Below, one piece after another: positions 5,206-27,344 of a DNA stretch of 32,000 nt. Position 1 is the first letter of the stretch, and each line of letters opens with the position of its first letter. The position numbers and the translations under genes were made by a program. The stretch is taken from positions 1,170,001 through 1,202,000 of the forward strand of contig CBDCNV010000002.1 in the NCBI GenBank assembly GCA_965219535.1, given 5' to 3'. The stretch comes from Opitutales bacterium (GTDB lineage Bacteria > Verrucomicrobiota > Verrucomicrobiia > Opitutales > PNEW01). The notes below the pieces were generated by a model. The model was not told where the DNA came from, ran no database searches, and saw only the letters and a program-made list of their open reading frames with translations.

Positions 5206-5327
5206 AATAATAATGGCCGTTAGTGAAAACTAGGAATGCTACCATGAATGTGCAACTAGAATTATTAGTAAACAGCCGCCGACGCTCCTCTTTAGCGTGC
5301 CAAGGTGATCAGTGAGTAGTGAGAGAA

Positions 5328-5357
5328 GGTTCAATGGTTGATGGTTCAAGGTTCAGG
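5328..5357. repeat. GGTTCA word stutter (ggttcaatggttgatggttcaaggttcagg), G-orientation arm
   Basis: Read directly. It is the opposite orientation of the array at 5503..5551 in the same spacer. Confidence 0.8.
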
Positions 5358-5502
5358 AGTTAGGAGGACGATAGATAGAAGTGAACAGATAGTGGGAGAG
5401 GGGTGTCGGGTGTCGGGATAGAAGTGAACCCTTCGATTTCCTCAGGTCAGGCAGTGAACAGTGGATGGTTGAAATGAATGATGAATAATTTATAATTCTT
5501 AG

Positions 5503-5551
5503 CTGAACCCTGAACCCTGAACCCTGAACCCTGAACCCTGAACCCTGAACC
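5503..5551. repeat. Perfect tandem heptamer array (CTGAACC)x7
   Basis: Units start at 5503, 5510, 5517, 5524, 5531, 5538 and 5545. The complement is (GGGTTCA)n. Confidence 0.97.
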
Positions 5552-5583
5552 CTGTACCGAGAGCGTAGCTCGACACTTCCACC
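5552..5583 (-). repeat. GGCTAYG-core motif copy (reverse complement ggtggaagtgtcgagctacgctctcggtacag)
   Basis: Near-identical to 5599..5630, 6407..6441 and 21332..21366. Confidence 0.9.
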
Positions 5584-5598
5584 TACAACCCTTGAACC

Positions 5599-5630
5599 GT
5601 GTACCGAGGCGTAGCCCGACATCTTCCACC
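5599..5630 (-). repeat. GGCTAYG-core motif copy (reverse complement ggtggaagatgtcgggctacgcctcggtacac)
   Basis: Second tandem copy, embedded between TGAACC words. Confidence 0.9.
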
Positions 5631-5728
5631 ACTGAACCCGGAACCATTTTAAGGAACATTTCGCGTTTGATATTATTAAATCATCTGTCTAAGTTCAGCG
5701 AAAGTTTTAGACGAAGATCATTTTTATA

Positions 5729-6548: not shown

Positions 6549-7196
6549 CTATTCCTTCTTCCCCTCAAACGACTGTGCCACCTGTATGCCTACAAGGCGG
6601 GCGACGATAACGGCGATATAGATCTGGCCGATAACGGCTTCGATCGCGGCAAACATGCGCGCGGGTGCCGTTGCTGGAATGATATCTCCATAGCCAAGGG
6701 TGGTAATGGTCACTAAACTATAGTAGATGGAGTATACGAATTCGAACTGTATGGAATCACCTCCGGATTCTTCCATTAGTGATAAGGAAAACGAACCGGG
6801 TTCAATGATTTCTATCATCGTATAAACAGTCGCCCATAAAACACTTATTAAGAGATACCCACTGAGTGAAGCATAAAGCGTGTTGGCTGTCACTTGTTTG
6901 CTTTTAATGAGATAAGTGAAAATAAAAACAACGGTTAACATTAGAAAAACAATGCTGATTATCTGTGAAGCAATGAGTAAGCTATTCAGTGCCGAAAGAA
7001 AATGAATTCCTCGTAATATAATCACCATTACCACTAATACACCGGCCTTTATCACCGTGCGGCGGTTCTGACACGCCGCAAAGAGCGCGGTAAGCAGTGT
7101 TGCTGAGAATAAGAGGAAAAAAATAAATTTTGCGAATTGAGGATTGCCTGCTCCGAAGCGTCCCACGAATGGTGCGGTAAGAAATAGTAAAATCAA
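6549..7196 (-). CDS. Small multi-TM potassium channel (Ion_trans_2-type pore, selectivity filter TTLGYGD)
   Basis: The sequence reads ...YYSLVTITTLGYGDIIPATAPARMFAAIEAVIGQIYIAVIVARLV, with several hydrophobic helices upstream. The listed start is TTG at 7196, directly abutting the IS left end. The frame stays open into the IS up to 7238. Confidence 0.8.
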   Translation of the reverse strand: MILLFLTAPFVGRFGAGNPQFAKFIFFLLFSATLLTALFAACQNRRTVIKAGVLVVMVIILRGIHFLSALNSLLIASQIISIVFLMLTVVFIFTYLIKSKQVTANTLYASLSGYLLISVLWATVYTMIEIIEPGSFSLSLMEESGGDSIQFEFVYSIYYSLVTITTLGYGDIIPATAPARMFAAIEAVIGQIYIAVIVARLVGIQVAQSFEGKKE

Positions 7197-7263
7197 CGTG
7201 GAGTGACCCCCAAAAATCGTATCATTTACAGAGAGAGGTTATCGGGATAAACAGATAACCTCA

Positions 7264-7557
7264 ATGAAAAGAAAAAGATACACAACAGAACAGATTATAA
7301 CAATATTGCGGCAAGCCGATACCGGTAAAACGGTACAGGAAATCTGCCGTGGAAACAACCTGAGCGAACAGACTTTCTATCGCTGGCGTAAAAAATATGG
7401 CAATTTAGAACTTGCCGATGCGAAGCGATTTAAAGAGCTGGAAAAAGAATTCACGAGCGCAAGCGAGAAGGCCTGACATACCGAGCTGAAGAAGCTGCTC
7501 GCAGATCAAATGCTCAAGAATCAGGTAATGGAGGAAACGCTGTCAAAAAAATGGTGA
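7264..7557 (+). pseudogene. IS3 orfA (HTH transposase subunit) interrupted by an in-frame TGA at 7474..7476
   Basis: The N-terminus is MKRKRYTTEQIITILRQADTGKTVQEICRGNNLSEQTFYRWRKKYG... After the TGA the same frame continues HTELKKLLADQMLKNQVMEETLSKKW*, the leucine-zipper tail expected for orfA. Confidence 0.8.
7545..7551 (+). promoter_or_regulatory. Programmed -1 ribosomal frameshift heptamer A_AAA_AAA linking orfA to orfB
   Basis: Seven A residues sit in the X_XXY_YYZ register of orfA (codons TCA AAA AAA TGG TGA). A -1 slip reads on as ...LSKKMVSPKQKKRVV into orfB. This is the standard IS3 arrangement. Confidence 0.8.
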
Positions 7558-8474
7558 GCCCAAAGCAGAAGAAACGAGTAGTAAAAGCTGCGGCTGAGAA
7601 AGGGTTGTGCTCGTTGCGGAGGGCTTGTGCTTATCTCAGCCTGAGTTGGTCAACGTTCAGTTACCGGCCCAAACAGGCCAGTGAGAAAGCTCAGCGGTTG
7701 GTCGAGCGGATTGTGAGCTTGTCCTGGAAACATCCCCGCTACGGTTACCGGCGCATCCGTGCCTTGCTGGTAAAGGAAGGCTGGACAACAAGCAGGAAGT
7801 TTGTCCAGGCGGTACGACGTTCAGAAGGGCTGCAGGTAAAGCCCCCGAAAAAGGGCAGACACCGTCAAGGAGTCTCTACGGGGTCACCTACTAAAGCAAA
7901 GGGTCGCAATCACGTTTGGTCCTGGGACTTTGTCCATGATCGTACAGACAACGGCGGTCCATTAAAGATGATGACTCTAATCGATGAATATACGCGTAAA
8001 TGCCTGGATATCCGGGTCGCTCGTCAACTCACCTCAACCGATGTCCTCTCTGTGCTTAGCGAGGCCATTGAAGAGGAGGGACCTCCCAGCTATATCCGTA
8101 GTGACAACGGCAGTGAGTTCATTGCTCATCAAGTGCAGCAGTGGTTGTCCGGTAATAACATAAAGGCGATCTATATCGATCCGGGCAGTCCCTGGCAAAA
8201 CGGTTTCATCGAGTCGTTTCACAACCGCTTACGCGATGAGTGTTTGAACCGTGAAGTGTTGCTCAGCGTGGCTGAAGCGCAAGTGGTAATCGAACAATGG
8301 CGTCAGACCTATAACCATGAACATCCCCACAGTCGTTTAGGCTTCAAAAGCCCACAAGAGTTTGTCAGATTCCTTTCCGATCTTGGCCGCGTTCGGGCTA
8401 CGCCCTCACTTCGCCAAGATCTCTCATATACATCAATCCTAAAACCATTAACACCCGGTAACTCTCTCACTTAA
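7551..8474 (+). CDS. IS3 orfB, DDE (rve) transposase catalytic domain
   Basis: Motifs seen are WSWDFVHD...LIDEYTRKCL, IRSDNGSEFIA, and PGSPWQNGFIESFHNRLRDECLN...YNHEHPHSRLGFKSPQEF. Confidence 0.92.
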   Translation: MVSPKQKKRVVKAAAEKGLCSLRRACAYLSLSWSTFSYRPKQASEKAQRLVERIVSLSWKHPRYGYRRIRALLVKEGWTTSRKFVQAVRRSEGLQVKPPKKGRHRQGVSTGSPTKAKGRNHVWSWDFVHDRTDNGGPLKMMTLIDEYTRKCLDIRVARQLTSTDVLSVLSEAIEEEGPPSYIRSDNGSEFIAHQVQQWLSGNNIKAIYIDPGSPWQNGFIESFHNRLRDECLNREVLLSVAEAQVVIEQWRQTYNHEHPHSRLGFKSPQEFVRFLSDLGRVRATPSLRQDLSYTSILKPLTPGNSLT

Positions 8475-8501
8475 ATTGGTACGAAAAACGGGGTCCGATC
8501 A

Positions 8502-8687
8502 ACCCCACCGCAGCCTCGGCAATATTACTCCACAACGTTTCGCTCAAAACCTCAATACCGAAGGCTCGGGCTCCATTCGGGCTACGCCCTCATTGCGCCC
8601 AAGCCTTGACTTCCTCTACCAACTTAACTTCAACATTAACCTCTCCAGACTAACTCTCTCAGTGGACCAGTTTGTGTAACCCGACCA
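8502..8687 (+). mobile_element. 3' remnant of a second, related IS3-family copy (transposase C-terminal tail plus right end)
   Basis: ORF 8476..8679 encodes ...PHRSLGNITPQRFAQNL...GSGSIRATPSLRPSL...LSRLTLSVDQFV, paralleling the orfB tail HPHSRLGFKSPQEF...RVRATPSLRQDL...PGNSLT. The shared terminal string taactctctca occurs at 8458 and 8651. Confidence 0.7.
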
Positions 8688-8711
8688 ATCTAATGATGTT
8701 CGATGTTAGAT

Positions 8712-8735
8712 GTTTTAAAACGACATCGCATGTCG
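8712..8735 (-). terminator. Putative intrinsic terminator of the four-helix-bundle gene
   Basis: On the minus strand the sequence is CGACAT-gcg-ATGTCG (6-bp stem) followed by TTTTAAAAC, about 27 nt after the stop at 8762. Confidence 0.5.
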
Positions 8736-8761
8736 ATTTTCCTATTATAAATACGTCAACA

Positions 8762-9115
8762 TTATGCATCATCTAGTGTTTGGGACATTTTAACAAATAT
8801 GCTCACTATCTGATTAGCTTCATCGAGTACTGATTGTACAATGAAATTATCCCTAAAGCCTTTCTTTTTGTTAATTACTCGCAAACATACATGGCTCTCA
8901 CGAGCTTCTTTGAGAACTACTTTGATTTTATGCTTAAAATCTTTTCTTGATTCCGCTCCTTGTGCTTCCGCGTAGTTCAATGCCATAGAAGAAGAAGATC
9001 TTATCAGTTGTCCACCAAGATGCTTACCAGCTGGTGAACTGGGCAATTTTTCAGCCAAATCTATAGCTGAAACGGTAAAATCAATAAGCTTTTGTTCGAG
9101 TTTATTATTATCCAT
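8762..9115 (-). CDS. Four-helix-bundle protein (23S rRNA intervening-sequence protein family, TIGR02436/PF05635-like)
   Basis: The 117-aa ORF contains LGGQLIRSSSSMALNYAEAQGAESRKDFKHKIKVVLKEARESHVCLRVI, matching the family signature Q-l-x-R-s-x-x-S-i-x-x-N-x-a-E-g...kdf...a-x-x-S-x-x-E. Confidence 0.85.
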   Translation of the reverse strand: MDNNKLEQKLIDFTVSAIDLAEKLPSSPAGKHLGGQLIRSSSSMALNYAEAQGAESRKDFKHKIKVVLKEARESHVCLRVINKKKGFRDNFIVQSVLDEANQIVSIFVKMSQTLDDA

Positions 9116-9230
9116 TTATATACGACTTTTATTCGAAGCTACTGCCTATAATATCAAAAACGTGCCATCCGGTTTTCAGGATGTTTAAATTTTATCATAT
9201 ATTGTATATCGTAATTTGGACAACGTCCTT

Positions 9231-9340
9231 AATGATGTAAAACGAATGATGTCAGATGTCCGATGTCAGATGTTTGATGTTTGAGGTGTATGAACAACAT
9301 CCTACATCGCACATCTCACATCAAAGATCGCACATCGAAC
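9231..9340. repeat. Imperfect long palindrome made of a GATGT-word array (9231..9288) and an ACATC-word array (9298..9340)
   Basis: The left arm is aatgatgtaaaacgaatgatgtcagatgtccgatgtcagatgtttgatgtttgaggtg. The right arm is acatcctacatcgcacatctcacatcaaagatcgcacatcgaac. More GATGT words lie at 8695..8714 on the other side of the 4HB gene. Confidence 0.85.
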
Positions 9341-9379
9341 CCCCGACCCCTGAACCCTGAACCCCGAACCCTGAACCCT
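9341..9379. repeat. Degenerate TGAACCC-type array (ccccgacccctgaaccctgaaccccgaaccctgaaccct)
   Basis: Read directly. It contains six C3-4 tracts. Confidence 0.9.
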
Positions 9380-11276: not shown

Positions 11277-11327
11277 AGTCAAAAAATTGAGGATAATTAA
11301 GTTATAGATGCAGATTGGGAAAAGAAA

Positions 11328-11348
11328 AAACCGCGGATGGACGCGGAT
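11328..11348. repeat. Left copy of a perfect 21-nt inverted repeat (aaaccgcggatggacgcggat)
   Basis: This is the exact reverse complement of 14236..14256. Confidence 0.95.
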
Positions 11349-11381
11349 ATACACGGATAAAATATAATGAGAAAGTTTAGG

Positions 11382-11464
11382 AATTTGGAACTCAGGAAAT
11401 CAGGAAAAGAGTAGAGAATATTACAAAGTTTAATATGATTGAACCGCAAAGACGCTGAGGTCGC
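11382..11464 (+). repeat. ~85-nt direct repeat, copy 1 (aatttggaact..caggaaat..agaatattacaa..aatatgattgaaccgcaaag..gctgag.tcgc)
   Basis: It aligns with 14085..14172, with small word-sized indels. Confidence 0.85.
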
Positions 11465-11473
11465 AGAGAATAG

Positions 11474-11602
11474 GATTTAGAATTGAAGAATTGCGGTGCT
11501 TAATCGCAATGTAATCCCACCCGCGTCTGCGGGAGGGATTGACAAAGCTCAGGTAATCCTGAGCTATTGAGATTAAGCACCGCAATTCTCAAATTCTAAA
11601 TC
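11474..11602. other. 129-nt structured palindromic element: ~32-bp outer stem enclosing two internal hairpins
   Basis: The outer arms are gatttagaattgaagaattgcggtgcttaatc (11474..11505) and gattaagcaccgcaattctcaaattctaaatc (11571..11602). The inner hairpins are aatccc-ac-ccgc-gtct-gcgg-ga-gggatt and gctcagg-taat-cctgagc. Confidence 0.8.
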
Positions 11603-11626
11603 AACATCCGCGCTTATCCGCGTAAT

Positions 11627-11662
11627 TGGAAGATGTCGTCCCGCAGCTGCGGGACTCGGTAG
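11627..11662 (+). repeat. TGGAAGATGTCG-hairpin-TCGGTAG motif (tggaagatgtcgtcccgcagctgcgggactcggtag)
   Basis: The same motif occurs at 15363..15398 and 28893..28928. The hairpin is GTCCCGC-AGCT-GCGGGAC. Confidence 0.92.
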
Positions 11663-11800
11663 CCGCAGTCGGCTGATAGCCTCCCTCGCAATGACAATTG
11701 AGACAATGACGAAGACGGTGATTCATTTGATCAGCCCTGTAAGGGCGATACAATCTTAGCCCATTGCGTCAGCAATGGGTAATAGAGGCGCTCAATTCCC

Positions 11801-11867
11801 AAAGCCCCAGCGGGGCGACACAAGTACAGTTGGTAGATTTGTTGTGTCGCTCCGCTGGGGCTTTTTT
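11801..11867 (+). terminator. Terminator-like long hairpin (22-bp stem, 1 mismatch) followed by T6
   Basis: The arms are aaagccccagcggggcgacacaa (11801..11823) and ttgtgtcgctccgctggggcttt (11842..11864), followed by a T run extending to 11867. It lies ~525 nt downstream of the nearest + strand stop codon, so what it would terminate is unclear. Confidence 0.45.
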
Positions 11868-12005
11868 ATTAAACGATTAATTCTCCCACAGCTTACGCTG
11901 TGGGCTATGGTTGCTACACCCCTCTGGGGTGGAAAGCTTTGACCAAAACCCATGAACTCTGAACCCCGCCCACCCTGAGTGTAGTCGATGGGAACCCCGA
12001 ACCTA

Positions 12006-12053
12006 TTGACTTTTTGACATTTAACTTTCGACTTTTGACCTTCGACTTTCGAC
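12006..12053. repeat. CTTT(T/C)GAC word array (ttgactttttgacatttaactttcgacttttgaccttcgactttcgac)
   Basis: Read directly. It belongs to the same word family as 14195..14221, 18389..18408 and 20222..20253. Confidence 0.9.
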
Positions 12054-12142
12054 AATTCTCTTAAACCCATTTCCTTTTTAACCTATCATGCCACGCCATA
12101 GCTCGATAGAGCGACAGCGGGTGACCTTTTGACAAAAAAACC

Positions 12143-12961
12143 ATGAATCTAGAAAACATGCAGGAAGAGCGCCCGGAATGGATTAACTACCATGAAGGGA
12201 ATTTTGAAATCAAAGATTCGAAGATTATATTGCGGTCTTCCCAGTCAGGGCCTCCGGCTATCGCTAAACTTGCTTATGCGGGATGTTCTACGGGTAATAA
12301 AATTTTCAATCCGGGACTGAAGGGGACTAATAGTATTGAGGCCACCCTCTTAGACTATGGCGCTGAAGGCAATTATCTTGTCAAAGAGGGGAAGATTATG
12401 GAGTTCGAAGATCCCAGTGGTAAGAGCTTTCGCTCAGTTGCCGGTAACTATCAAAGGGGGTGGGGGATTTCGATTTCCAACTACCATTACCTTGTTACTT
12501 CTAAAAAAGAAACCGATCGCGGGGTGCAGGTTCATTTTGACTGGTGGGAAAATCTTGGGCTGACTTTTTGGATGGTTCGTGATGTCTTACCTGAAGACAG
12601 AGAGAAATATCCCAGTTGGGTGCCCCATAGACAAACCCCGGAGGAGGTATTTGAAATGGGAAAGAAGGGTCCCGTTATTACCCCAGTTGTGAACAAGCTT
12701 GGCATGCGCTGGTTCCCTCCCACCGATAAGATGAAGACACCTGTCGGGCATCGCTACGGACTCGTTTTAACGGACGATGGTAATACGGTCTACTGGACAC
12801 TGGACGGAAACGAGATGGATCGGGCGGATATTACTGGTTTTTTCAGTTCTTATCCGGATGCCGTTAAGGATGGTGCATTTGCAACGATGGGGGGGAATGG
12901 TTCTTATGAACGAAATCACTGGATCGCCGGGGATGTAAGCATTCGTCGTAGTACTTCTTAA
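12143..12961 (+). CDS. Hypothetical protein (272 aa; possibly a beta-sandwich/jelly-roll fold, unassigned)
   Basis: A long ORF with coding-like composition and no signal peptide. I do not recognise a family motif. Confidence 0.6.
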   Translation: MNLENMQEERPEWINYHEGNFEIKDSKIILRSSQSGPPAIAKLAYAGCSTGNKIFNPGLKGTNSIEATLLDYGAEGNYLVKEGKIMEFEDPSGKSFRSVAGNYQRGWGISISNYHYLVTSKKETDRGVQVHFDWWENLGLTFWMVRDVLPEDREKYPSWVPHRQTPEEVFEMGKKGPVITPVVNKLGMRWFPPTDKMKTPVGHRYGLVLTDDGNTVYWTLDGNEMDRADITGFFSSYPDAVKDGAFATMGGNGSYERNHWIAGDVSIRRSTS

Positions 12962-20107: not shown

Positions 20108-20112
20108 GTGGG

Positions 20113-20253
20113 GTCAAAAGGTCAAAAGGTCAAAAAGTCAAAAAGTTTAGGGTTTCTTTAATGACCATTGGAACACAGTGCCCGCCAACGTATTCTCTCT
20201 TTTACTTAAAGACGCATTTCCCTTTTGACCTTTTGACTTTTTGACCTTTTGAC
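20113..20253. repeat. (GTCAAAAG)x4 at 20113..20144 and (CTTTTGAC)x4 at 20222..20253: a 32-nt inverted repeat (about 30/32) around a 77-nt loop
   Basis: Read directly. The left arm starts 5 nt after the SDR stop codon. The right arm ends 8 nt before the dipeptidase ATG (20262). Confidence 0.95.
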
Positions 20254-21284: not shown

Positions 21285-21331
21285 GAAAGCCTGAAAACCG
21301 GAAGACCTGGTGTTCAGAGTCAAGGTTTCAG

Positions 21332-21366
21332 GGTGGAAGATGTCGGGCTACGCCCTCGGTACAGGG
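21332..21366 (+). repeat. GGCTAYG-core motif copy (ggtggaagatgtcgggctacgccctcggtacaggg)
   Basis: It contains the 15-mer tcgggctacgccctc (21343..21357), which is identical to 8393..8407 and 8577..8591 inside the IS3 copies. Confidence 0.92.
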
Positions 21367-21458
21367 TTCAGGGTTCAGGAAAAATGCCGATAGTTAGATG
21401 TGAACAGTGAACAGTAAACAGTGAGAAAGGGTTCAGAGTTCGGGGTTCAGGGTTCAGG
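21364..21458. repeat. G-orientation word block: gggttcagggttcagg, (GTGAACAG)x3, agggttcagagttcggggttcagggttcagg
   Basis: The sub-arrays lie at 21364..21379, 21400..21425 and 21429..21458. Confidence 0.9.
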
Positions 21459-21491: not shown

Positions 21492-21899
21492 CTATTCGCG
21501 TATGATTTCGGGCCAACGGTGATCACGTTCAGGAAGATGCTTTTCCAAAGTCCGTTCCATTCCATTCAGCATTCGGATACATACTTGATAGCGTCTGCTA
21601 TATTCTTCGTAAGTAGGTCTGCTTTCGTATCCTTTTAAATGGGCCATGTATACGTGGTGCACGGTCTCGGCGGCTTCGCCACGACTTCGATTCACTCCCT
21701 CTATCTTATTTCTAATATGACGATCATCGTATTTCTCAGCCAACTGAGCTGCTGCACTGTTTGAAGATCGTCTCGCTTGGGATCCGAGCTCATACTTCTC
21801 CTCTGTTGGCCACAAGTGAGTTAAGTTACAGACACTTATATGCAATTCGCAAAGTTTCTGGTATACAATCAAATCCTCTAAGCGCTTATATGCACTCAT
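21492..21899 (-). CDS. Four-helix-bundle protein (23S rRNA intervening-sequence protein family), second copy
   Basis: The 135-aa ORF contains LIVYQKLCELHISVCNLTHLWPTEEKYELGSQARRSSNSAAAQLAE...RGEAAETVHHV, which fits the same family signature. It is strongly diverged from the copy at 8762..9115. Confidence 0.75.
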   Translation of the reverse strand: MSAYKRLEDLIVYQKLCELHISVCNLTHLWPTEEKYELGSQARRSSNSAAAQLAEKYDDRHIRNKIEGVNRSRGEAAETVHHVYMAHLKGYESRPTYEEYSRRYQVCIRMLNGMERTLEKHLPERDHRWPEIIRE

Positions 21900-21980: not shown

Positions 21981-22017
21981 CTGAACCCTGAACCCTGAAC
22001 CCCGAACTCCGAACCCT
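21981..22017. repeat. C-orientation array ctgaaccctgaaccctgaaccccgaactccgaaccct
   Basis: It is inverted relative to 21429..21458, and the arms include the adjacent A/T runs (gggttcagggttcaggaaaa versus ttttttctgaaccctgaaccc). Confidence 0.92.
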
Positions 22018-22023
22018 CTCTCA

Positions 22024-24603
22024 CTACTCCTTCCTCGCGAGCATGGAATAAATCGTCAGTCCCTCGAGAGACTTTTTTCGCTCGGGTATAAATAGGCTGG
22101 ACAGATAGCCAACGACAAAACAGGTGATGAATCCGATAGATGAGTAGAGGAGAAAGTGTATCGGTGTTTCAAATTTCACAAAATAAAGGACTATCGCACT
22201 GGTAATCGCACCGACTAAGGCACCAATACCATTCGCACGTCGTGTAAAAATACCCAGGGCAAATAGTCCGCCCAATCCGCTGATAAACAATCCGGCGATA
22301 GCGGTAGCAAACAACGCGGCATTATGAATATCAAAAGTAACCAGAGAGAGGGCGATAACGGTGACAATGAGACCGATAACTAAGGTAACCGAGCGAGCCA
22401 GATACAAATAGAGACGATCGGGTTTCTTAGGTTTGAAGCGTCGGTAAAAATCCGTGACAAAGACTGTGGCCACCGAGTTCATCCCGCTGTCAAGACTCGA
22501 CATCGCGGCGGAAAAGATGGCTGCAATGACAAAACCGGCAAGCCCGAAGGGAAGATTTTGTGCGATGAAGAGAGGAAAAATCGCGTCATTCTGCATTCCC
22601 ATGCTGACTGTGGCTGGGTGCGTTTTATAATAGGCGTAGAGGGCGGAACCCATTCCATAAAATAAAAAACCGATGGGAATACCAATTATAGCATTTAACC
22701 ATATCCCTTTCGCGGCCGTTTTTTCGTCCTTCGTCGTAAGATACCTTTGGATCGTGGTTTGCTCGGTGGATGGTCCCAAAAAGGCACCAAAAGCACTACT
22801 AATTAATAACACCCATAGGACGGGCGCAGTAAAGTCCCACTCCAGATACAACATGCGGTATTTATCATCAGCCAAACCTATATCGATTATTCCCTTATAA
22901 CCATTATCGATATGAAAAGGAATAACGATGAGGGCAATAATGATACCGATAAAAAATACAATGACCTGTAAAACATCCGACCATACGACCGCTTCGATAC
23001 CACCCAACACGGTGTAAAAGGTGCTGATTAATCCCATAAAGAGAATACATATGTAGATATTAATCCCCGCGATGGTGGAGAGAACAACTGCCGGCAGATA
23101 AAGAATAATACTGATCCTGATTAATTGATAAATTATGAATTGTACACTCCCGTATAAGCGAACAGGCAGATTAAATCGTTTCTCCAGGTATTCATAAGCG
23201 GTAGTAACATTAAGCCTTCGGTAAAACGGCAGGAAAAAATAGATAACAATTATAGGAGCAAAGATTAACCCAATCCTTCCGGGAAATAGGAACCAGTCTG
23301 TGGCGTAAGCCAATGCGGGATAGGAAATATAAGTTAGGGCGCTAAGTCCGGTTCCCAGAATACTGAGCCCTGCCGCCCACCAGGGGATGCGATGACCGGC
23401 GAGAAAATAATCTTTTGTCCCTTTCTCCCGCCTGGAAAAATAAAAACCCATATAGACAAGCGCCACCATATACAGTAGGAGAAAAGAATAATTTATGATT
23501 CCAAACGATGCATTCGCTCCCGCATCATGAATCATTATTTGAACCTTAGGGGTCATTATCCCGGGTTCTGTCTCTCCACCGGTAATGGCGATCCCTCCTT
23601 CCCATAACACCGCTTCAGAAGACACTACCCCTAATGGTAATTCACCTTTTACCAACCAGGTATCAGTGACCGTGTGATAGACGAGAAGATCGCGTGAATA
23701 GCTGGGATGATCCTTACTTGAATTCACATCCTCGTGCTTCCAGGTATTGCCTCCAAAGATAAGAATATGTGATTGTCCATAGGCAACTCCAGGGGCCCCG
23801 GTTACGGGGTGGGGGGCGTCGGCGATAGGTTCCCAATTTTCATAACGAAGGGAATAGCGGTAGCCGTCGGTCAATTGCCTGCTTTGAATCTCACCATTTT
23901 CATTCTGAATCCTTTCTTCACCGCCAATGATGTATACAAATCTGCCATTACCAATATTCTGGCCTATAACGATGGCCCTTCTCCTCGCCGGGCCCTCCCA
24001 GGGGACTAACGATTTCCAACCCGCATCTAAATTGTTCAGATCAAGTGACCAAAAATTCTTCGTCAGACTCATTTTGTCTCGCTCCAACTGGCCACCAACC
24101 ACGTATACGACACCATTAATTTCAGCGGCGCCGATTAAAGAAAGTGACTGTGGAAGAGGCGGCAGGGACACTTGATTAATTATCCGAGAAGATGCATTCC
24201 ACGTTAACTGGATCACCTCGTTCTGATTGCCCTCAGCATTGCTCCCCCCAATTAAGATCAAACTATCATCGCTAGTTACGGAAGCACCTAAAGCGATCGG
24301 TTCATTCAGTTTATAGCCCGTTAACCACTTTTTCTCTCTATTATTTGGGAGTATGTAGATGTCGTCATACCAAGTTCTGTTTCGGATCATCAATTCCATT
24401 CCATGCGGGAAATTCGAACCCCCAGCGACAATGAGAGCGCCATTGCTGACCCCGGTAAATGCTCCACCCAGACCGAGCTTGTTAGGCAATTCGGGAAGTT
24501 CACTCCAACTAATGGCTTCTTGCTGCGGCGCTGCGCTTTCACTGTGCCCTGCTATGCAAATCAAGGCAGCAAAGCATAACAAGATAACACAGGGATGTTT
24601 CAT
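22024..24603 (-). CDS. Fusion protein: N-terminal secreted Kelch/NanM-like (sialic-acid-mutarotase-type) beta-propeller plus C-terminal sodium:solute symporter (SSS, PF00474-like)
   Basis: The preferred start is ATG 24603, giving MKHPCVILLCFAALICIAGHSES (signal peptide). The track start at 24639 is a GTG inside the GGTTCAG repeat. The propeller shows GGAFTGVSNGALIVAGGSNFP and repeated ...GG blades over about 340 aa. About 13 TM helices follow, with the SSS signature TVLGGIEAVVWSDVLQ. Confidence 0.85.
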   Translation of the reverse strand: MKHPCVILLCFAALICIAGHSESAAPQQEAISWSELPELPNKLGLGGAFTGVSNGALIVAGGSNFPHGMELMIRNRTWYDDIYILPNNREKKWLTGYKLNEPIALGASVTSDDSLILIGGSNAEGNQNEVIQLTWNASSRIINQVSLPPLPQSLSLIGAAEINGVVYVVGGQLERDKMSLTKNFWSLDLNNLDAGWKSLVPWEGPARRRAIVIGQNIGNGRFVYIIGGEERIQNENGEIQSRQLTDGYRYSLRYENWEPIADAPHPVTGAPGVAYGQSHILIFGGNTWKHEDVNSSKDHPSYSRDLLVYHTVTDTWLVKGELPLGVVSSEAVLWEGGIAITGGETEPGIMTPKVQIMIHDAGANASFGIINYSFLLLYMVALVYMGFYFSRREKGTKDYFLAGHRIPWWAAGLSILGTGLSALTYISYPALAYATDWFLFPGRIGLIFAPIIVIYFFLPFYRRLNVTTAYEYLEKRFNLPVRLYGSVQFIIYQLIRISIILYLPAVVLSTIAGINIYICILFMGLISTFYTVLGGIEAVVWSDVLQVIVFFIGIIIALIVIPFHIDNGYKGIIDIGLADDKYRMLYLEWDFTAPVLWVLLISSAFGAFLGPSTEQTTIQRYLTTKDEKTAAKGIWLNAIIGIPIGFLFYGMGSALYAYYKTHPATVSMGMQNDAIFPLFIAQNLPFGLAGFVIAAIFSAAMSSLDSGMNSVATVFVTDFYRRFKPKKPDRLYLYLARSVTLVIGLIVTVIALSLVTFDIHNAALFATAIAGLFISGLGGLFALGIFTRRANGIGALVGAITSAIVLYFVKFETPIHFLLYSSIGFITCFVVGYLSSLFIPERKKSLEGLTIYSMLARKE

Positions 24604-24617
24604 CGAACAGAGAGAGA

Positions 24618-24647
24618 GGGTTCTGGGTTCAGGGTTCACGGTTCAGG
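24618..24647. repeat. G-orientation array gggttctgggttcagggttcacggttcagg
   Basis: It lies immediately upstream of the symporter start codon and is inverted relative to 21981..22017 at the gene's 3' end. Confidence 0.9.
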
Positions 24648-24710: not shown

Positions 24711-24763
24711 CACTGTTCACTGTTACACTGTTCACTGTTCACTGTTCACTGTTCACTGTTCAC
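24711..24763. repeat. (CACTGTT)x7 tandem array (one unit carries an extra A)
   Basis: Read directly. The last units supply the final codons and the TGA stop (24753..24755) of the upstream symporter paralog (GGT GAA CAG TGA on the minus strand). Confidence 0.95.
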
Positions 24764-27344
24764 CCCTGGGTAGGACCGTGTAAATCGTCAACCCTTTAAG
24801 GGATTTTTTCCGCTCGGGTATAATCAGACTGGCAAAATACCCGGCGATAAGACAGACGGTGAATCCAATCGTGGGGTAGAGGAAAAAATTTATTGGCGTG
24901 TGGTACTTTACATAATACAGGGCTATTGCACTGATGATAGCACCCATCAAAGCTCCCATACCATTTGCTCTTCGCGTAAAAATACCGAGGGCAAATAACC
25001 CGCCCAATCCACCGATAAAAAGTCCTAAGACAGAGCTGGCAAAGATAACGGCAGACTGAATATTAAAGGTAACCAGGAGAAGAGCGACAGCCGTGGCAAA
25101 AAGGCCAATGAGCAAGGTAATAGAACGCGCGAGATTTAAATAAAAACGTTCAGATTTATCCGCTTTGAACCGACGATAAAAATCGGTGACAAAGACGGTA
25201 GCGATAGAGTTCATCCCGCTGTCCAGACTTGACATCGCCGCAGAAAAGATGGCCGCAATGACAAAACCAGCAAGACCGAAGGGAAGGTTTTGCGCGATGA
25301 AGAGAGGAAAAATCGCGTCGTTCCGCATCCCCAAGCTGACACTGCTCGGGTGTGTTTTGTAAAAAGCGTAAAGGGCAGATCCCATGACAAGGACGATTGC
25401 CCCCAGCGGAAGACCGGCAATTACGTTTAACCATAACCCTTTTGCCGCAGCTTTTTCATCCTTTGTCGTAAGAAACCTTTGAATTCTGCTTTGGTCGGAG
25501 GATAAGACAATGAAGGTTCCCATCGCGCCGCTGATTAATAATACCCATAATGTTGGTTCGGTAATGTCCCAGTCCAGGTACCACATGCGATATTTATCAT
25601 CGGCGAGACCAATGTCGATCATACCCTTAATACCATTATCGACATTAAAGAAGACGACGATCAGGGCAATAATGAGTCCGGCTATGAAGATGAACACCTG
25701 GATAACATCCGACCATATAACCGCTTCAATGCCGCCCAGTACTGTGTAAAAAGTGCTTATCAAACCTAACGACAGTATGCAGACATAAATATTTATCCCC
25801 GTGATCGTGGAGAGAACAATGGCGGGTAGATACATGATCAGACTGATCCGCAATGATTGAAATAAAATAAATTGTGCACTCCCGAATAAGCGAACGGCCA
25901 GGTTAAAACGTTTCTCCAGGTATTCATAGGCGGTAGTAATATTCAACCTTCGATAAAATGGCAGGTAGAAATAAATAATCATAATCGGTGCGAAAAAGAA
26001 CCCGATCCGAACCGGAAAATAAAACCAGTCCGTAGAAAAAGTTAAGGCGGGATGGGCAATATAAGTTACGGCGCTAAGCCCTGTTCCCAGTAAACTGAGC
26101 CCTGCCGCCCACCAGGGAACACGGCGCCCCGCAAGAAAGTAATCATCCGTTCCTTTTTCTCTTTTGGAAAAGTAAAAGCCAAGGTAAACTATGCCCACGA
26201 GATAGAGAGTGAGAAAAGTGTAATTTATAATTCCAAACGACGCGCCGGCTCCTGAATCGTGAATCATTAATTGCACCTTAGGGGTCATTGTCCCGGGTTT
26301 AGTCTCACCACCGGTTATGACGATGCCTTCTCCCCAGGATACCGCTTCTGCAGACACTACACCTAACGGTATCTCAGCTTGAATTATCCAGGTATCGGTG
26401 ATCGTATGATAGACGAGAAGATCGTGCGAATAAAGAGGATGATCATCTCCCTTTGTTGAGAGATTCATCCCCGTGTTATTATCGGTCTTACCACCAAAAA
26501 TGAGAACATGGGATTGTCCATAGGCAATACCAGGGGCAGCTGTTAGGGGGTGCGGGGCGTCGGTAATTCGTTCCCACTTCTCGTTTGTCAGTGAGTAGCG
26601 GTAACCATCAGTTAATTGCCTGGTTTGAATTTCACCCTTTTCATCTTCGATTTGCGCTTCGCCTCCAATGATGTATAAATTTTTTCTATAACCGGTATTT
26701 TGACCCACGACGACAGCCCTATTTCGAACCGGTCCCTCCCAGGGTTTTAACGATTCCCATCCCGCTTCCAGATTATTCAGGTTGAGTGACCAGAATATAT
26801 TTATTAATTCCGATCTTTCGCCGACAATCTGAACGCCCGCAACATATACGATCTCATCCATTTCAGTGGCGCCTACGAATGAGAGAGTTTGTGGAAGGGG
26901 AGGCAAGGACACTTGATTAATCTTTCTAGAAGCTGCCTCCCACGTTATTTGCGTCACTTGCTTGTGATTACCCCCTGCATTACTCCCGCCAATCAGGATC
27001 AAACTCTGGCTACTAATTACGGATGCGCCGTAAGCAAGCGGCTCTTTCAAGCTAAATCCCGTTTGCCAACTTTCTTGCTCAGTGTCGGACAGAACATAAA
27101 TGTCCGCATACCAGAATCTACTTCCGGCCTTCCCCTCAGGGGTTTGAGGAAAATTCGAACCGCCGGCGACGATGAGCGCGCCATTGCTGACTCCGGCGAA
27201 AGCCCCGCTTAGACCTGGAGAATTGGGGATTACTGGCAGTTCTTCCCAGGTGATTTTCTCGGGTCTTTGTGTTTCACCTTCGGCGCGCCCGATAAAGCAT
27301 AGGAAGGTGGTTAAACATAAAGCGAGAGCAGAGGAGAGATTCAT
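24753..27344 (-). CDS. Paralogous Kelch/NanM-like beta-propeller plus SSS symporter fusion
   Basis: It has the signal peptide MNLSSALALCLTTFLCFIGRAEG and the same architecture as its neighbour. By eye the two are collinear and highly similar throughout, for example GAFAGVSNGALIVAGGSNFP, TVLGGIEAVIWSDVIQ and AIFSAAMSSLDSGMNS. Confidence 0.88.
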   Translation of the reverse strand: MNLSSALALCLTTFLCFIGRAEGETQRPEKITWEELPVIPNSPGLSGAFAGVSNGALIVAGGSNFPQTPEGKAGSRFWYADIYVLSDTEQESWQTGFSLKEPLAYGASVISSQSLILIGGSNAGGNHKQVTQITWEAASRKINQVSLPPLPQTLSFVGATEMDEIVYVAGVQIVGERSELINIFWSLNLNNLEAGWESLKPWEGPVRNRAVVVGQNTGYRKNLYIIGGEAQIEDEKGEIQTRQLTDGYRYSLTNEKWERITDAPHPLTAAPGIAYGQSHVLIFGGKTDNNTGMNLSTKGDDHPLYSHDLLVYHTITDTWIIQAEIPLGVVSAEAVSWGEGIVITGGETKPGTMTPKVQLMIHDSGAGASFGIINYTFLTLYLVGIVYLGFYFSKREKGTDDYFLAGRRVPWWAAGLSLLGTGLSAVTYIAHPALTFSTDWFYFPVRIGFFFAPIMIIYFYLPFYRRLNITTAYEYLEKRFNLAVRLFGSAQFILFQSLRISLIMYLPAIVLSTITGINIYVCILSLGLISTFYTVLGGIEAVIWSDVIQVFIFIAGLIIALIVVFFNVDNGIKGMIDIGLADDKYRMWYLDWDITEPTLWVLLISGAMGTFIVLSSDQSRIQRFLTTKDEKAAAKGLWLNVIAGLPLGAIVLVMGSALYAFYKTHPSSVSLGMRNDAIFPLFIAQNLPFGLAGFVIAAIFSAAMSSLDSGMNSIATVFVTDFYRRFKADKSERFYLNLARSITLLIGLFATAVALLLVTFNIQSAVIFASSVLGLFIGGLGGLFALGIFTRRANGMGALMGAIISAIALYYVKYHTPINFFLYPTIGFTVCLIAGYFASLIIPERKKSLKGLTIYTVLPRGEQ

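Follow-up and report, generated by a model that had tools for sequence, protein, structure and literature searches.

Inverted heptamer arrays around free-standing four-helix-bundle (PF05635) genes: an Opitutales locus and a family-wide comparison

Proteins of the PF05635/TIGR02436 family are small and widespread, and to our knowledge no function is established for them outside the diversity-generating retroelements (DGRs). The DGR protein Avd binds RNA encoded beside its own gene. Likewise, we know of no accepted function or origin for intergenic heptamer repeats, of which the short tandemly repeated repetitive (STRR) sequences of cyanobacteria are an example. The REP-associated tyrosine transposases (RAYTs) belong to the HUH/Y1 transposases and have a known catalytic role, and the repetitive extragenic palindromes (REPs) are imperfect palindromes of ~35 nt. 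A GxxRxxxSxxxNxxE motif was reported for the PF05635 family (PMC3936711), and members of the family were reported earlier in cas loci (PMC3936711; PMC10910872). The stems of rRNA intervening sequences (IVSs) are cut by RNase III, and the terminal stem of the Coxiella IVS is 28 bp long (PMC4990558). Intergenic heptamer repeats often occur as several types side by side (PMC4679880; 10.1101/2022.06.06.494920), and the TTTTGAA/TTCAAAA repeats were reported to affect the expression of recF and recO in Nostoc (10.1101/2022.06.06.494920). In this study, a 32,000-nt stretch of the genome of an Opitutales bacterium (assembly GCA_965219535.1, contig CBDCNV010000002.1, positions 1,170,001 to 1,202,000), referred to as the window, was analysed. 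It contains two PF05635 genes, 4HB1 and 4HB2. Genes of this family were found to be specifically associated with inverted heptamer arrays in at least seven bacterial phyla. This association between gene family and arrays appears to be undescribed so far; no link between free-standing PF05635 genes and inverted heptamer arrays was found in the searchable literature, subscription-only papers being outside the search.

Two four-helix-bundle genes and the flanks of their family

4HB1 (8762-9115, (-) strand, 117 aa) had been assigned to the 23S rRNA IVS protein family by a first-pass annotation of the bare sequence, and the assignment was borne out by profile matches and a structural model. The protein matched PF05635 (E 9e-13; 48.8 bits, cut-off 33.8) and TIGR02436 (69.5 bits, cut-off 24). 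The AlphaFold2 (AF2) monomer model had a predicted local distance difference test (pLDDT) score of 93, with four helices at 3-22, 28-51, 57-83 and 90-116, and it shows the fold of the family, an up-and-down four-helix bundle of ~110-130 aa like those of 2RLD and 2GSC. The closest structures found with Foldseek were BT_0352 (2RLD; template modelling (TM) score 0.83-0.87) and Xcc0516 (2GSC; TM ~0.8), both of them pentameric relatives (5 chains in 2RLD), and Avd (4DWL/8UB7) was more distant, with TM values of 0.72-0.78 and a sequence identity of ~8%. The conserved R-x3-S-x3-N-x2-E core is present in the translation as R39-SSS-S43-MAL-N47-YA-E50. An exact look-up of the 117-aa protein gave no match, and a protein 99% identical to it (P0001) is encoded in six other assemblies. 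Within the four-helix-bundle (23S rRNA IVS protein/Avd-like) family, 4HB1 is an ordinary member of the free-standing kind. The second gene, 4HB2 (21492-21899, (-) strand, 135 aa), matched PF05635 with an E value of 4e-20 (72.5 bits) and TIGR02436 with 70.3 bits. It is 21% identical to 4HB1 in alignment, only 43 residues being aligned by BLASTP, and its core reads R44-SSN-S48-AAA-Q52-LA-E55, with N replaced by Q. Its relatives include some labelled as Kiritimatiellia.

The flanks of the family were compared in three independent data sets. For each open reading frame (ORF), the 250 nt upstream were aligned to the reverse complement of the 250 nt downstream, and the score was expressed as z against shuffles. 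Set 1 comprised 80 loci that an alignment of 4HB1 relatives had retrieved from GTDB species representatives; 76 of the loci were testable, and the set came mostly from Bacteroidota and also from Ignavibacteria, Balneolaceae, Verrucomicrobiota, Latescibacterota, Desulfobacterales and Pirellulales. The median z was 8.9, and z exceeded 5 in 76% of the 76 loci. The corresponding values for 331 other ORFs of the same loci were 0.07 and 1.5%, and two of the highest-scoring control ORFs were themselves further paralogues of the four-helix-bundle family. When the flanks were compared as direct repeats, z exceeded 5 in 22% only. In most loci solely the inverted comparison was significant; hence, each flank has a single orientation and finds its partner across the ORF.

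Set 2 consisted of 80 metagenome loci of the 4HB2 subfamily. Inverted flanks with z > 5 were present in 49% of the 57 testable loci, and all of these carried AGGGTTC, AGGTGTC or AGGTTTC upstream and the complement downstream, often 0-30 nt from the ORF. Within 300 nt of 4HB2-type ORFs, the density of AGGGTTC-type arrays was ~13.6 per 10 kb (109 arrays in an estimated ~80 kb), roughly 25-fold higher than the 0.55 per 10 kb elsewhere in this set; solo arrays and empty inverted pairs of the same type also occur in these genomes. Set 3 was obtained by a tblastn search of PLSDB with 4HB1, from which ten loci with genes annotated as 'four helix bundle protein' were fetched. They lie on plasmids of Nostoc, Anabaena, Dolichospermum and Aulosira (Nostocales) and on one Chloroflexota plasmid; the tblastn search of plasmids with 4HB2 gave no match. 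Inverted heptamer arrays abutted the coding sequence (CDS) in 9 of the 10 loci, for example AATTCGT x4 / TTACGAA x4 (36/36 complementary), AATTCAA x4 / TTTTGAA x4 and GGAAGTC / GACTTCC. A z above 5 was found for 1 of 24 other annotated CDS, and this one bordered a four-helix-bundle gene. In minimum free energy (MFE) folds from ATG-150 to stop+150, the median number of long-range pairs between the flanks was 35, 35 and 52 in sets 1-3 compared with 6 in 96 control ORFs, and a terminal stem closed the ORF loop in 76-100% of loci family-wide.

The association of PF05635 genes with inverted heptamer arrays is therefore specific. The possibility that it is coincidental, in that array-filled intergenic regions would make any small gene appear flanked by arrays unrelated to it, was considered on the basis of the window itself. 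The window carries ~20 tandem arrays whose period is 6, 7 or 8 nt, all intergenic except one 6-mer, and nearly every intergenic region longer than 100 bp carries 7- or 8-nt arrays. The sodium:solute symporter family (SSF) gene at 22024-24639 likewise lies between GAACCCT and AGGGTTC arrays. Because of this abundance, the window alone would not prove an association. In genomes in which arrays are otherwise rare, however, the family genes still have them and their neighbours do not, as was seen in all three data sets, and the 25-fold enrichment near 4HB2-type ORFs points the same way. Coincidence is hardly credible as an explanation.

Anatomy, context and possible mechanism of the cassettes

The flanks are built from units of seven nucleotides. 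Self-match at lag 7 was 0.377 upstream and 0.359 downstream of the genes, compared with 0.283 in controls, and a second peak occurred at lag 14. In set 1, the upstream unit read G-A-W-T-n-n-n on the sense strand, and the downstream unit was its complement. GA at a spacing of 7 nt dominated the upstream flank in 63 of 70 loci, and TC with the same spacing dominated the downstream flank in 60 of 71. Array positions peaked at -100 to -25 relative to the ATG and at 0-50 nt past the stop codon. In a mirror test, the real score exceeded the score with reversed heptamer order in 28 of 32 loci (p = 1.5e-5). A 35-nt arm consensus, GATTTAAGAACAAGGATTAACGATTTnnGATTTAA, was shared by both arms of 10 set-1 loci from an Ignavibacterium and several Bacteroidota orders. 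The identity among these loci was 0.79 in the arm consensus, 0.70 in the ORF and 0.31-0.40 just outside or inside the arm. Moreover, the arm type follows the protein subfamily. The AGGGTTC type recurs throughout the 4HB2 subfamily, paralogues in one genome bear different arms, and the arms are conserved between two Gracilimonas species. The arms are a conserved, subfamily-specific sequence element of the cassette. Because they are subfamily-specific, conserved across genomes and adjacent to the ORF, they belong to the cassette and not to a targeted host hairpin. The first-pass annotation had raised the possibility of a cassette that targets hairpin loops, which does not agree with arms that travel with the gene. 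In many 4HB2-type cassettes of set 2 (e.g., L112, L113 and L124; arms TCAGGGTTCAGGAG / CTCCTGAACCCTGA), the ATG is preceded at 5-10 nt by an AGGAG Shine-Dalgarno sequence that comes from the last upstream heptamer, and the 3' arm opens with CTCCT directly after the stop codon. Since AGGAG and CTCCT lie in opposite arms, the closing stem would sequester the ribosome-binding site.

In the window, this geometry is clearest at 4HB2. Downstream of the gene, in the gene sense, lies AGGGTTC x4.4 (21428-21458, (+) strand), and upstream lies CTGAACC x5.3 (i.e., GAACCCT; 21981-22017, (+) strand). The two arms pair with each other and formed a 34-bp closing stem in both the MFE and the centroid fold, with a fold z of -5.9 and a flank inverted-repeat z of 28. 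AGGGTTC-type arrays are found at five positions in the window (5505, 9345, 21428, 21983 and 24617), and 4HB2 lies between two of them. A ~95% identical 4HB2 cassette is present in L096, a more distant relative, at a different locus, between orf156 and an AXE1-like gene. The segment shared by the two copies ends inside the heptamer arrays on both sides, and visual inspection of the ends of the relocated cassette revealed no target-site duplication. A ~47-nt dispersed element, CTGAACCCTGTACCGAGAGCGTAGCyCGACAyCTTCCACC, is fused to GAACCCT arrays at several intergenic sites of the window (5538-5645 and 21330-21379) and also in relatives (530-590 and 3030-3075 in L096).

The cassettes also have a characteristic context. 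The upstream neighbour was co-directional in 64 of 75 loci of set 1 and 54 of 62 of set 2 (together 118 of 137), the baselines being 0.69 and 0.76, and ~60% of loci lay between two co-directional genes. The median gap to the upstream neighbour was 151 nt in set 1 and 95 nt in set 2, which is about one arm length. 4HB2 follows this common pattern, lying downstream of the co-directional SSF gene with a 124-nt gap. 4HB1 belongs to a minority class with a divergent upstream neighbour and ~115 nt of its own conserved upstream sequence. This AT-rich region (9116-9229, (-) strand) contains a promoter-like TTGTCC-18-TATGAT at 9223-9194, which is a consensus match only; the region is nearly invariant across strains and is retained in L096, where the coding sequence has been replaced. 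The genes adjoining 4HB1 are the IS3 orfA/orfB pair and a Mo-oxidoreductase gene, and those adjoining 4HB2 encode an M19 dipeptidase and the SSF transporter.

On plasmids, a cassette between helicase-related and DNA methylase genes was found in L180 (Ca. Chlorohelix plasmid) and in L182 (Dolichospermum plasmid pAfl69). In these two loci, which represent two phyla, the gaps are 10 to 78 nt and the host operon looks restriction- or defence-like. In L184 (Anabaena cylindrica PCC 7122 plasmid pANACY.01, 155585-155932), the four-helix-bundle gene lies between cas2 and cas1 on the opposite strand, a position that fits the earlier reports of the family in cas loci; the flanking AAAGT-rich 7-nt arrays of L184 are direct and not inverted. 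The cassettes of the Nostoc plasmids L181, L183, L185 and L177 immediately precede XisH/XisI excision-factor genes or site-specific integrases, and that of L183 also adjoins a Tn7-like tnsA.

According to these results, free-standing PF05635 ORFs usually occupy the loop that a potential stem of 20-50 bp would close, the stem being made of degenerate 7-nt repeat arrays. The explanation that we prefer, with a probability of about 0.6, is that PF05635 genes are compact cassettes bracketed by mirror 7-nt arrays, that the arms are part of the cassette, and that they provide an IVS-like stem and possibly a protein site. Three kinds of change were observed among related strains, namely array copy-number change, one relocation of a cassette (4HB2) and one replacement (4HB1 in L096). 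Relocation probably proceeds through recombination within arrays, and the AGGGTTC-type arrays of the source organism (5 in 32 kb) would be common enough to act as landing sites. Many cassettes follow a co-directional gene and have no space for a promoter between the arm and the ATG; hence, they are probably transcribed by read-through. Upon co-transcription with the host gene, both arms could pair as a 20-50-bp RNA duplex around the ORF. This duplex may be an RNase III substrate as in the rRNA IVSs, by which the ORF would be separated or insulated from the host transcript. The arms may also, or instead, serve as a protein recognition site or function at the level of DNA, the candidate protein being the presumably pentameric four-helix-bundle protein itself. 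Recognition by a protein is probable because the arms are conserved as sequence, without covariation or wobble bias.

In addition to the abundance of arrays in the window, several points weigh against the cassette explanation. Recombination within arrays rests on a single relocation. The two arms of one cassette resembled each other no more closely than arms from different genomes do (0.67 vs 0.72), so that pairing as such is not visibly selected. A test for G:U wobble asymmetry was null (120 vs 124), the mismatches being mostly transversions (442), and the lengths of the upstream and downstream arms were uncorrelated. The RNA-level step is one that we infer, and the G:U test gave it no support. 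Some loci, such as 4HB1 and the Gracilimonas loci with a conserved segment, have 60-150 nt between the arm and the ATG; this segment could hold an internal promoter, which would exclude the 5' arm from the mRNA of the gene itself. At 4HB1, the MFE fold with 150-nt flanks had zero long-range pairs, local hairpins being dominant, and the flanks of 4HB1 and its nearest relatives (L001 and L004, and a 69% relative in L007/L008) are chiefly direct repeats. In this lineage the direct repeats are composite palindromic units (z 24-58), and the long-range stem is marginal.

A tentative alternative, for which the probability is clearly lower, is a partnership between gene and repeat. The protein of each paralogue would bind its own heptamer type; the flanking arrays would be auto-regulatory or cis-preferred sites, and the solo arrays of that type would be further sites, regulated, protected or propagated by the protein in a manner resembling the RAYT/REPIN (REP doublet) systems. 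This idea agrees with arms that are conserved as a motif and not by covariation, with an arm type that tracks the protein subfamily and differs between paralogues of one genome, and with the occurrence of five AGGGTTC-type arrays for one 4HB2 gene in the window and of solo or empty arrays in set-2 genomes. The relatives are pentameric, and the homologue Avd is present in an RNA-protein complex (2RLD, 2GSC, 8UB7; Lin 2006, cited in PMC3936711). Furthermore, a preprint on Nostoc postulates a binding protein for the TTTTGAA/TTCAAAA repeats (10.1101/2022.06.06.494920), and in L178 the Nostoc flagelliforme gene has TTCAAAA/TTTTGAA as its arms. Against this idea, heptamer binding by a four-helix-bundle protein is putative, and arrays away from the gene were rare in most sampled genomes (8.8% of control flanks; 0.55 per 10 kb in set 2). 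A model of one heptad per subunit of a pentamer predicts arrays of ~5 units; strict arrays did not peak at 5 units, their median being ~3.5, and in one subgroup the conserved arm comprises exactly 5 heptads. No hint came from Rfam, with which 18 loci were scanned at the gathering threshold and L033 at E<1 and no match was obtained at the arms, or from PADLOC, which gave no defence-system match. In a wider and similarly tentative form, the four-helix-bundle proteins would be the missing partners of heptamer (STRR-type) arrays, each paralogue recognising its own repeat as single-stranded or hairpin nucleic acid and acting on solo arrays, which it would control, protect or spread, with the rRNA IVS as a special case.

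The cassettes could also be DNA-level mobile elements, in which the arms would be terminal inverted repeats composed of 7-bp subsites and would be used by a transposase or recombinase in trans or by host recombination. Their inverted ends are conserved across phyla and more so than the flanking DNA, the mismatch spectrum of the arms is strand-symmetric, and the 4HB2 cassette occupies two loci in related strains with a shared segment that ends in arrays. The contexts are varied (between cas1 and cas2, in helicase-methylase operons and beside integrases), PF05635-family ORFs occur in several 16S and 23S rRNA insertion sites (PMC11270868), and IVSs have been considered possible remnants of transposition (PMC4990558). 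However, no target-site duplication was seen by eye outside the conserved arms in the loci inspected, and the cassette has no transposase gene, the four-helix-bundle protein being encoded by the sole ORF between the arms. Two Gracilimonas species hold both paralogues at syntenic positions, which indicates stable inheritance of the cassette there, and the arm length is highly variable, unlike that of defined transposon ends. We regard such an element as unlikely, and retain the cassette with array-based arms and an IVS-like stem as the preferred explanation.

The 4HB1 locus and other arrays of the window

The first-pass annotation had proposed that a cassette of ~506 bp (8724-9229) was inserted into the loop of a pre-existing GATGT/ACATC hairpin, with duplication of a 16-nt target composed of TAATGATGT and AAAACGA. 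The two half-sites were confirmed in position. TAATGATGT has exactly two copies in the window, at 8691 and 9230, and two copies were also present in 5 of 100 shuffled controls. AAAACGA occurs at 8717 and 9239; it is a common word, with 11 copies in the window compared with 7.6 expected. The flanking words are likewise present, GATGT at 8695-8714 and 9247-9284 and ACATC at 9296-9340, although each side largely pairs with itself. On the left, a small hairpin 3' of 4HB1 (GATGT x3 / ACATC x2, 8691-8734) includes the left TAATGATGT and a terminator-like stem at 8721-8735, and the local pairing partner of the GATGT array at 8695-8714 is ACATCGCATGTC at 8723-8734. On the right, the contiguous TAATGATGTAAAACGA (9230-9245, (+) strand), which had been taken as the right target copy, is a degenerate start of a GATGT unit. 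It is followed by a self-contained hairpin unit at 9247-9340, consisting of GATGTnn x5-6 (9247-9288), a loop and nnACATC x5-6 (9296-9340), and corresponding to the inverted repeat I1 with 38-nt arms, 74% complementarity and a 21-nt loop. This hairpin was present in both the MFE and the centroid fold and dominated the fold of 8685-9345. A GAACCCT heptamer array x6 (9336-9379, (+) strand) comes next, and its copy number varies among strains in the alignment of assemblies.

A short long-range stem around 4HB1 is possible. The pair I3 (8698-8715 / 9323-9340; 18 nt, 83% complementary) formed a closing stem of ~10 bp in the MFE fold of 8685-9345, and no such stem was formed with 150-nt flanks. The gene lies between direct copies of the palindromic hairpin unit, and the local hairpins therefore compete with the long-range stem. 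The proposal that the gene sits in the loop of a long stem holds for the family as a whole, as in the 34-bp stem of 4HB2; at 4HB1 the long-range stem is marginal. The hairpin at 8712-8735 had also been read as the gene's own terminator. In the terminator scan, the stem at 8721-8735 was accepted on the + strand only; its tail on the 4HB1 strand, TTTTAAAA, has 4 T and falls under the scan threshold, and the hairpin is not kept in the sister clade.

Comparison with related assemblies argued against an insertion with target duplication. The 4HB1 locus of L002 and L003 resembles that of the window. In the sister clade (L001 and L004-L006), which is without the insertion sequence (IS), 4HB1 keeps its position beside the same Mo-oxidoreductase gene, and the left TAATGATGT is lacking together with the whole segment left of 8723. 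Downstream of the gene, the sister clade has an AGGGTTC array and a larger GATGT/ACATC hairpin with the same loop, TGTTCATAC. The homology between the two clades (A/B) breaks at 8722/8723, inside arrays and next to the proposed left boundary. At the site 9230-9245, the sister clade has TAATGATGCAAAACGA, and L096 has TAATGATGCATAACGA. The Mo-oxidoreductase of L096 is 92% identical to that of the window, and upstream of its gene lie four tandem copies (150-530) of a ~90-nt GATGT/ACATC hairpin unit. Three of these units start with ATCTAATGATGT, and TAATGATGCATAACGA stands as a variant in the first. In the window, the left copy, CCAATCTAATGATGT, shares the unit boundary of the L096 hairpin units; hence, TAATGATGT is the 5' end of a hairpin unit and not a duplicated target. 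The unit upstream of the Mo-oxidoreductase gene is present once in the window, twice in L001/L004 and four times in L096, i.e., in 1-4 tandem copies among relatives, so whole hairpin units, and not heptamers alone, differ in copy number among strains. Array copy numbers differed among all assemblies aligned. In L096, the 4HB1 coding sequence is swapped for an unrelated sequence from ~25 nt upstream of the ATG (window ~9140), and the upstream region is kept. Among the assemblies compared, the strain breaks were at 8722/8723 and ~9140, and no breakpoint was found at 9229/9230.

The target duplication was therefore rejected. According to the strain junctions and the chance frequency of AAAACGA, the 16-nt repeat is a repeat-unit boundary joined to a common heptamer, and the left TAATGATGT is lacking from four assemblies in which the gene is present. 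Elsewhere in the family, the arms belong to the gene subfamily and not to the site. An insertion at 8724-9229 into a pre-existing hairpin is thus highly improbable, despite the two half-sites, the adjacent clade break and the short stem. Strain polymorphism itself was found, in that cassettes were replaced or relocated between related strains. L095, with a Mo-oxidoreductase 81% identical and no adjoining four-helix-bundle gene, does not represent a clean empty site, since its upstream synteny differs. Comparison with other family members supported the underlying idea, 4HB2 lying in inverted arrays and inverted flanks being common in sets 1-3. The earlier observation is partly confirmed, and its idea of the cassette geometry is right for the family as a whole.

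Beyond the cassette, an IS3-family element (7179-8506, (+) strand) contains orfA (7264-7476) and orfB (7551-8474) with the Pfam domains HTH_Tnp_1, rve and rve_3. Its limits, with the right end at ~8506, were set from other copies in L003. The element had been described as an IS remnant and is intact-looking; it explains the rearranged left context of 4HB1. Several full and partial copies of it occur within 10 kb in L003 (15110-20354), and the genes beyond it vary by strain. This pattern points to a recent IS-mediated rearrangement beside 4HB1.

Array types in the source organism include GTCAAAAG, GAACAGT, GACTTTC and CGGAT. Some inverted array pairs of the window are empty. One of them, at 20112-20253, consists of GGTCAAAA x4, ~70 nt and CCTTTTGA x4 and lies between two co-directional genes. 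Another, at 5326-5558 (AAGGTTC x4 ... CTGAACC x8), belongs to the AGGGTTC/GAACCCT family and has no ORF in its ~150-nt loop. Degraded four-helix-bundle genes were not found in the loops of the empty window arrays by a sensitive hidden Markov model (HMM) search of the six-frame translation. At 11330-11640, inverted CGGAT/ATCCG heptamer arrays (ccgcggatggacgcggata ... acatccgcgcttatccgcg) surround a loop of ~200 nt with a nested inverted repeat and no ORF; the orthologous region of L001 shares these outer arrays and has a different inner content. The interval between orf156 and the AXE1-like gene (window 11277-12961, L001 7222-7748, L096 2483-3153) is fully different in the three related strains, with 866 nt and a 272-aa ORF in the window, 527 nt of hairpin repeats in L001 and the 4HB2-type cassette in L096. 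To judge from its content in these strains, it looks like a hot spot for exchange. An Acido-Lenti-1 RNA was matched at 11733-11779 on the (-) strand (Rfam, 42.3 bits against a gathering score of 37), within the 866-nt intergenic region rich in nested inverted arrays. Taken with the Kiritimatiellia-labelled relatives of 4HB2, this match suggested a source in the PVC group (Kiritimatiellota or Lentisphaerota-like). The genes at 22024-24639 and 24753-27344 ((-) strand) are tandem paralogues of 871 and 863 aa, each with an N-terminal Kelch/NanM-like beta-propeller fused to a sodium:solute symporter, and AGGGTTC and TCACTGT arrays separate them.

Relation to described systems

The association ties the PF05635 family to heptamer repeats, so that each of the two puzzles gains a handle on the other. 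The four-helix-bundle protein becomes a candidate for the heptamer-binding factor postulated in Nostoc. The association may also explain why 23S_rRNA_IVP genes recur in cas loci and in CRISPR-association screens, as small intergenic cassettes with repeat arrays. It suggests that the rRNA intervening sequences are one niche of a wider stem-loop cassette; if the partnership between protein and heptamer were true, an rRNA IVS would be such a cassette that landed in an rRNA helix.

The closest described system is the rRNA IVS of Leptospira, Coxiella and bacteria of the candidate phyla radiation (CPR). Both share a PF05635 ORF, an ORF-containing loop of ~0.4-0.5 kb and a stem formed by terminal inverted repeats. 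The IVS lies within a host transcript, as the cassettes probably do, and both are sporadic and suspected of horizontal transfer. The link to rRNA IVSs that had been drawn from the sequence therefore stands in protein family and stem-loop geometry, but not in location. A scan of the whole window at the Rfam gathering thresholds found no rRNA, and the neighbours of 4HB1 and 4HB2 are protein-coding; because the cassettes are not in rRNA, they are not IVSs. Their arms are 7-nt-phased, subfamily-specific arrays between protein-coding genes, and RNase III processing is putative here. The likeness to Avd lies in the fold (4DWL, 8UB7) and in the pentameric relatives. Unlike at a DGR, no reverse transcriptase or pair of template and variable repeats was seen beside the two genes, and the scanned proteins showed no reverse transcriptase domain.

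The RAYT and REP/REPIN systems resemble the cassettes in that one gene lies between inverted copies of a short repeat, with further copies dispersed among the intergenic regions of that genome, and 4HB2 in the window is such a gene. They differ in that the 4HB proteins match PF05635 only, with no known enzymatic motif, and in that solo arrays are rare in most of the genomes sampled. The STRR and other intergenic heptamers (of heterocystous cyanobacteria, TAACTGA in Beggiatoaceae and TTTTGAA in Nostoc) are intergenic tandem 7-mers in 3-8 copies, as the arms are; however, no searchable paper describes them as inverted pairs around an ORF or ties them to four-helix-bundle genes. Miniature inverted-repeat transposable elements (MITEs) and IS elements with terminal inverted repeats (TIRs) share inverted ends conserved across genomes and strain-polymorphic insertion sites, whereas the 4HB cassettes lack a transposase, show no target-site duplication in the loci inspected and have arms of variable length made of tandem units. 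Hence, the 4HB cassettes share features with IVSs, RAYT/REPIN systems, STRR sequences and TIR elements and fall short of each in a defining feature.

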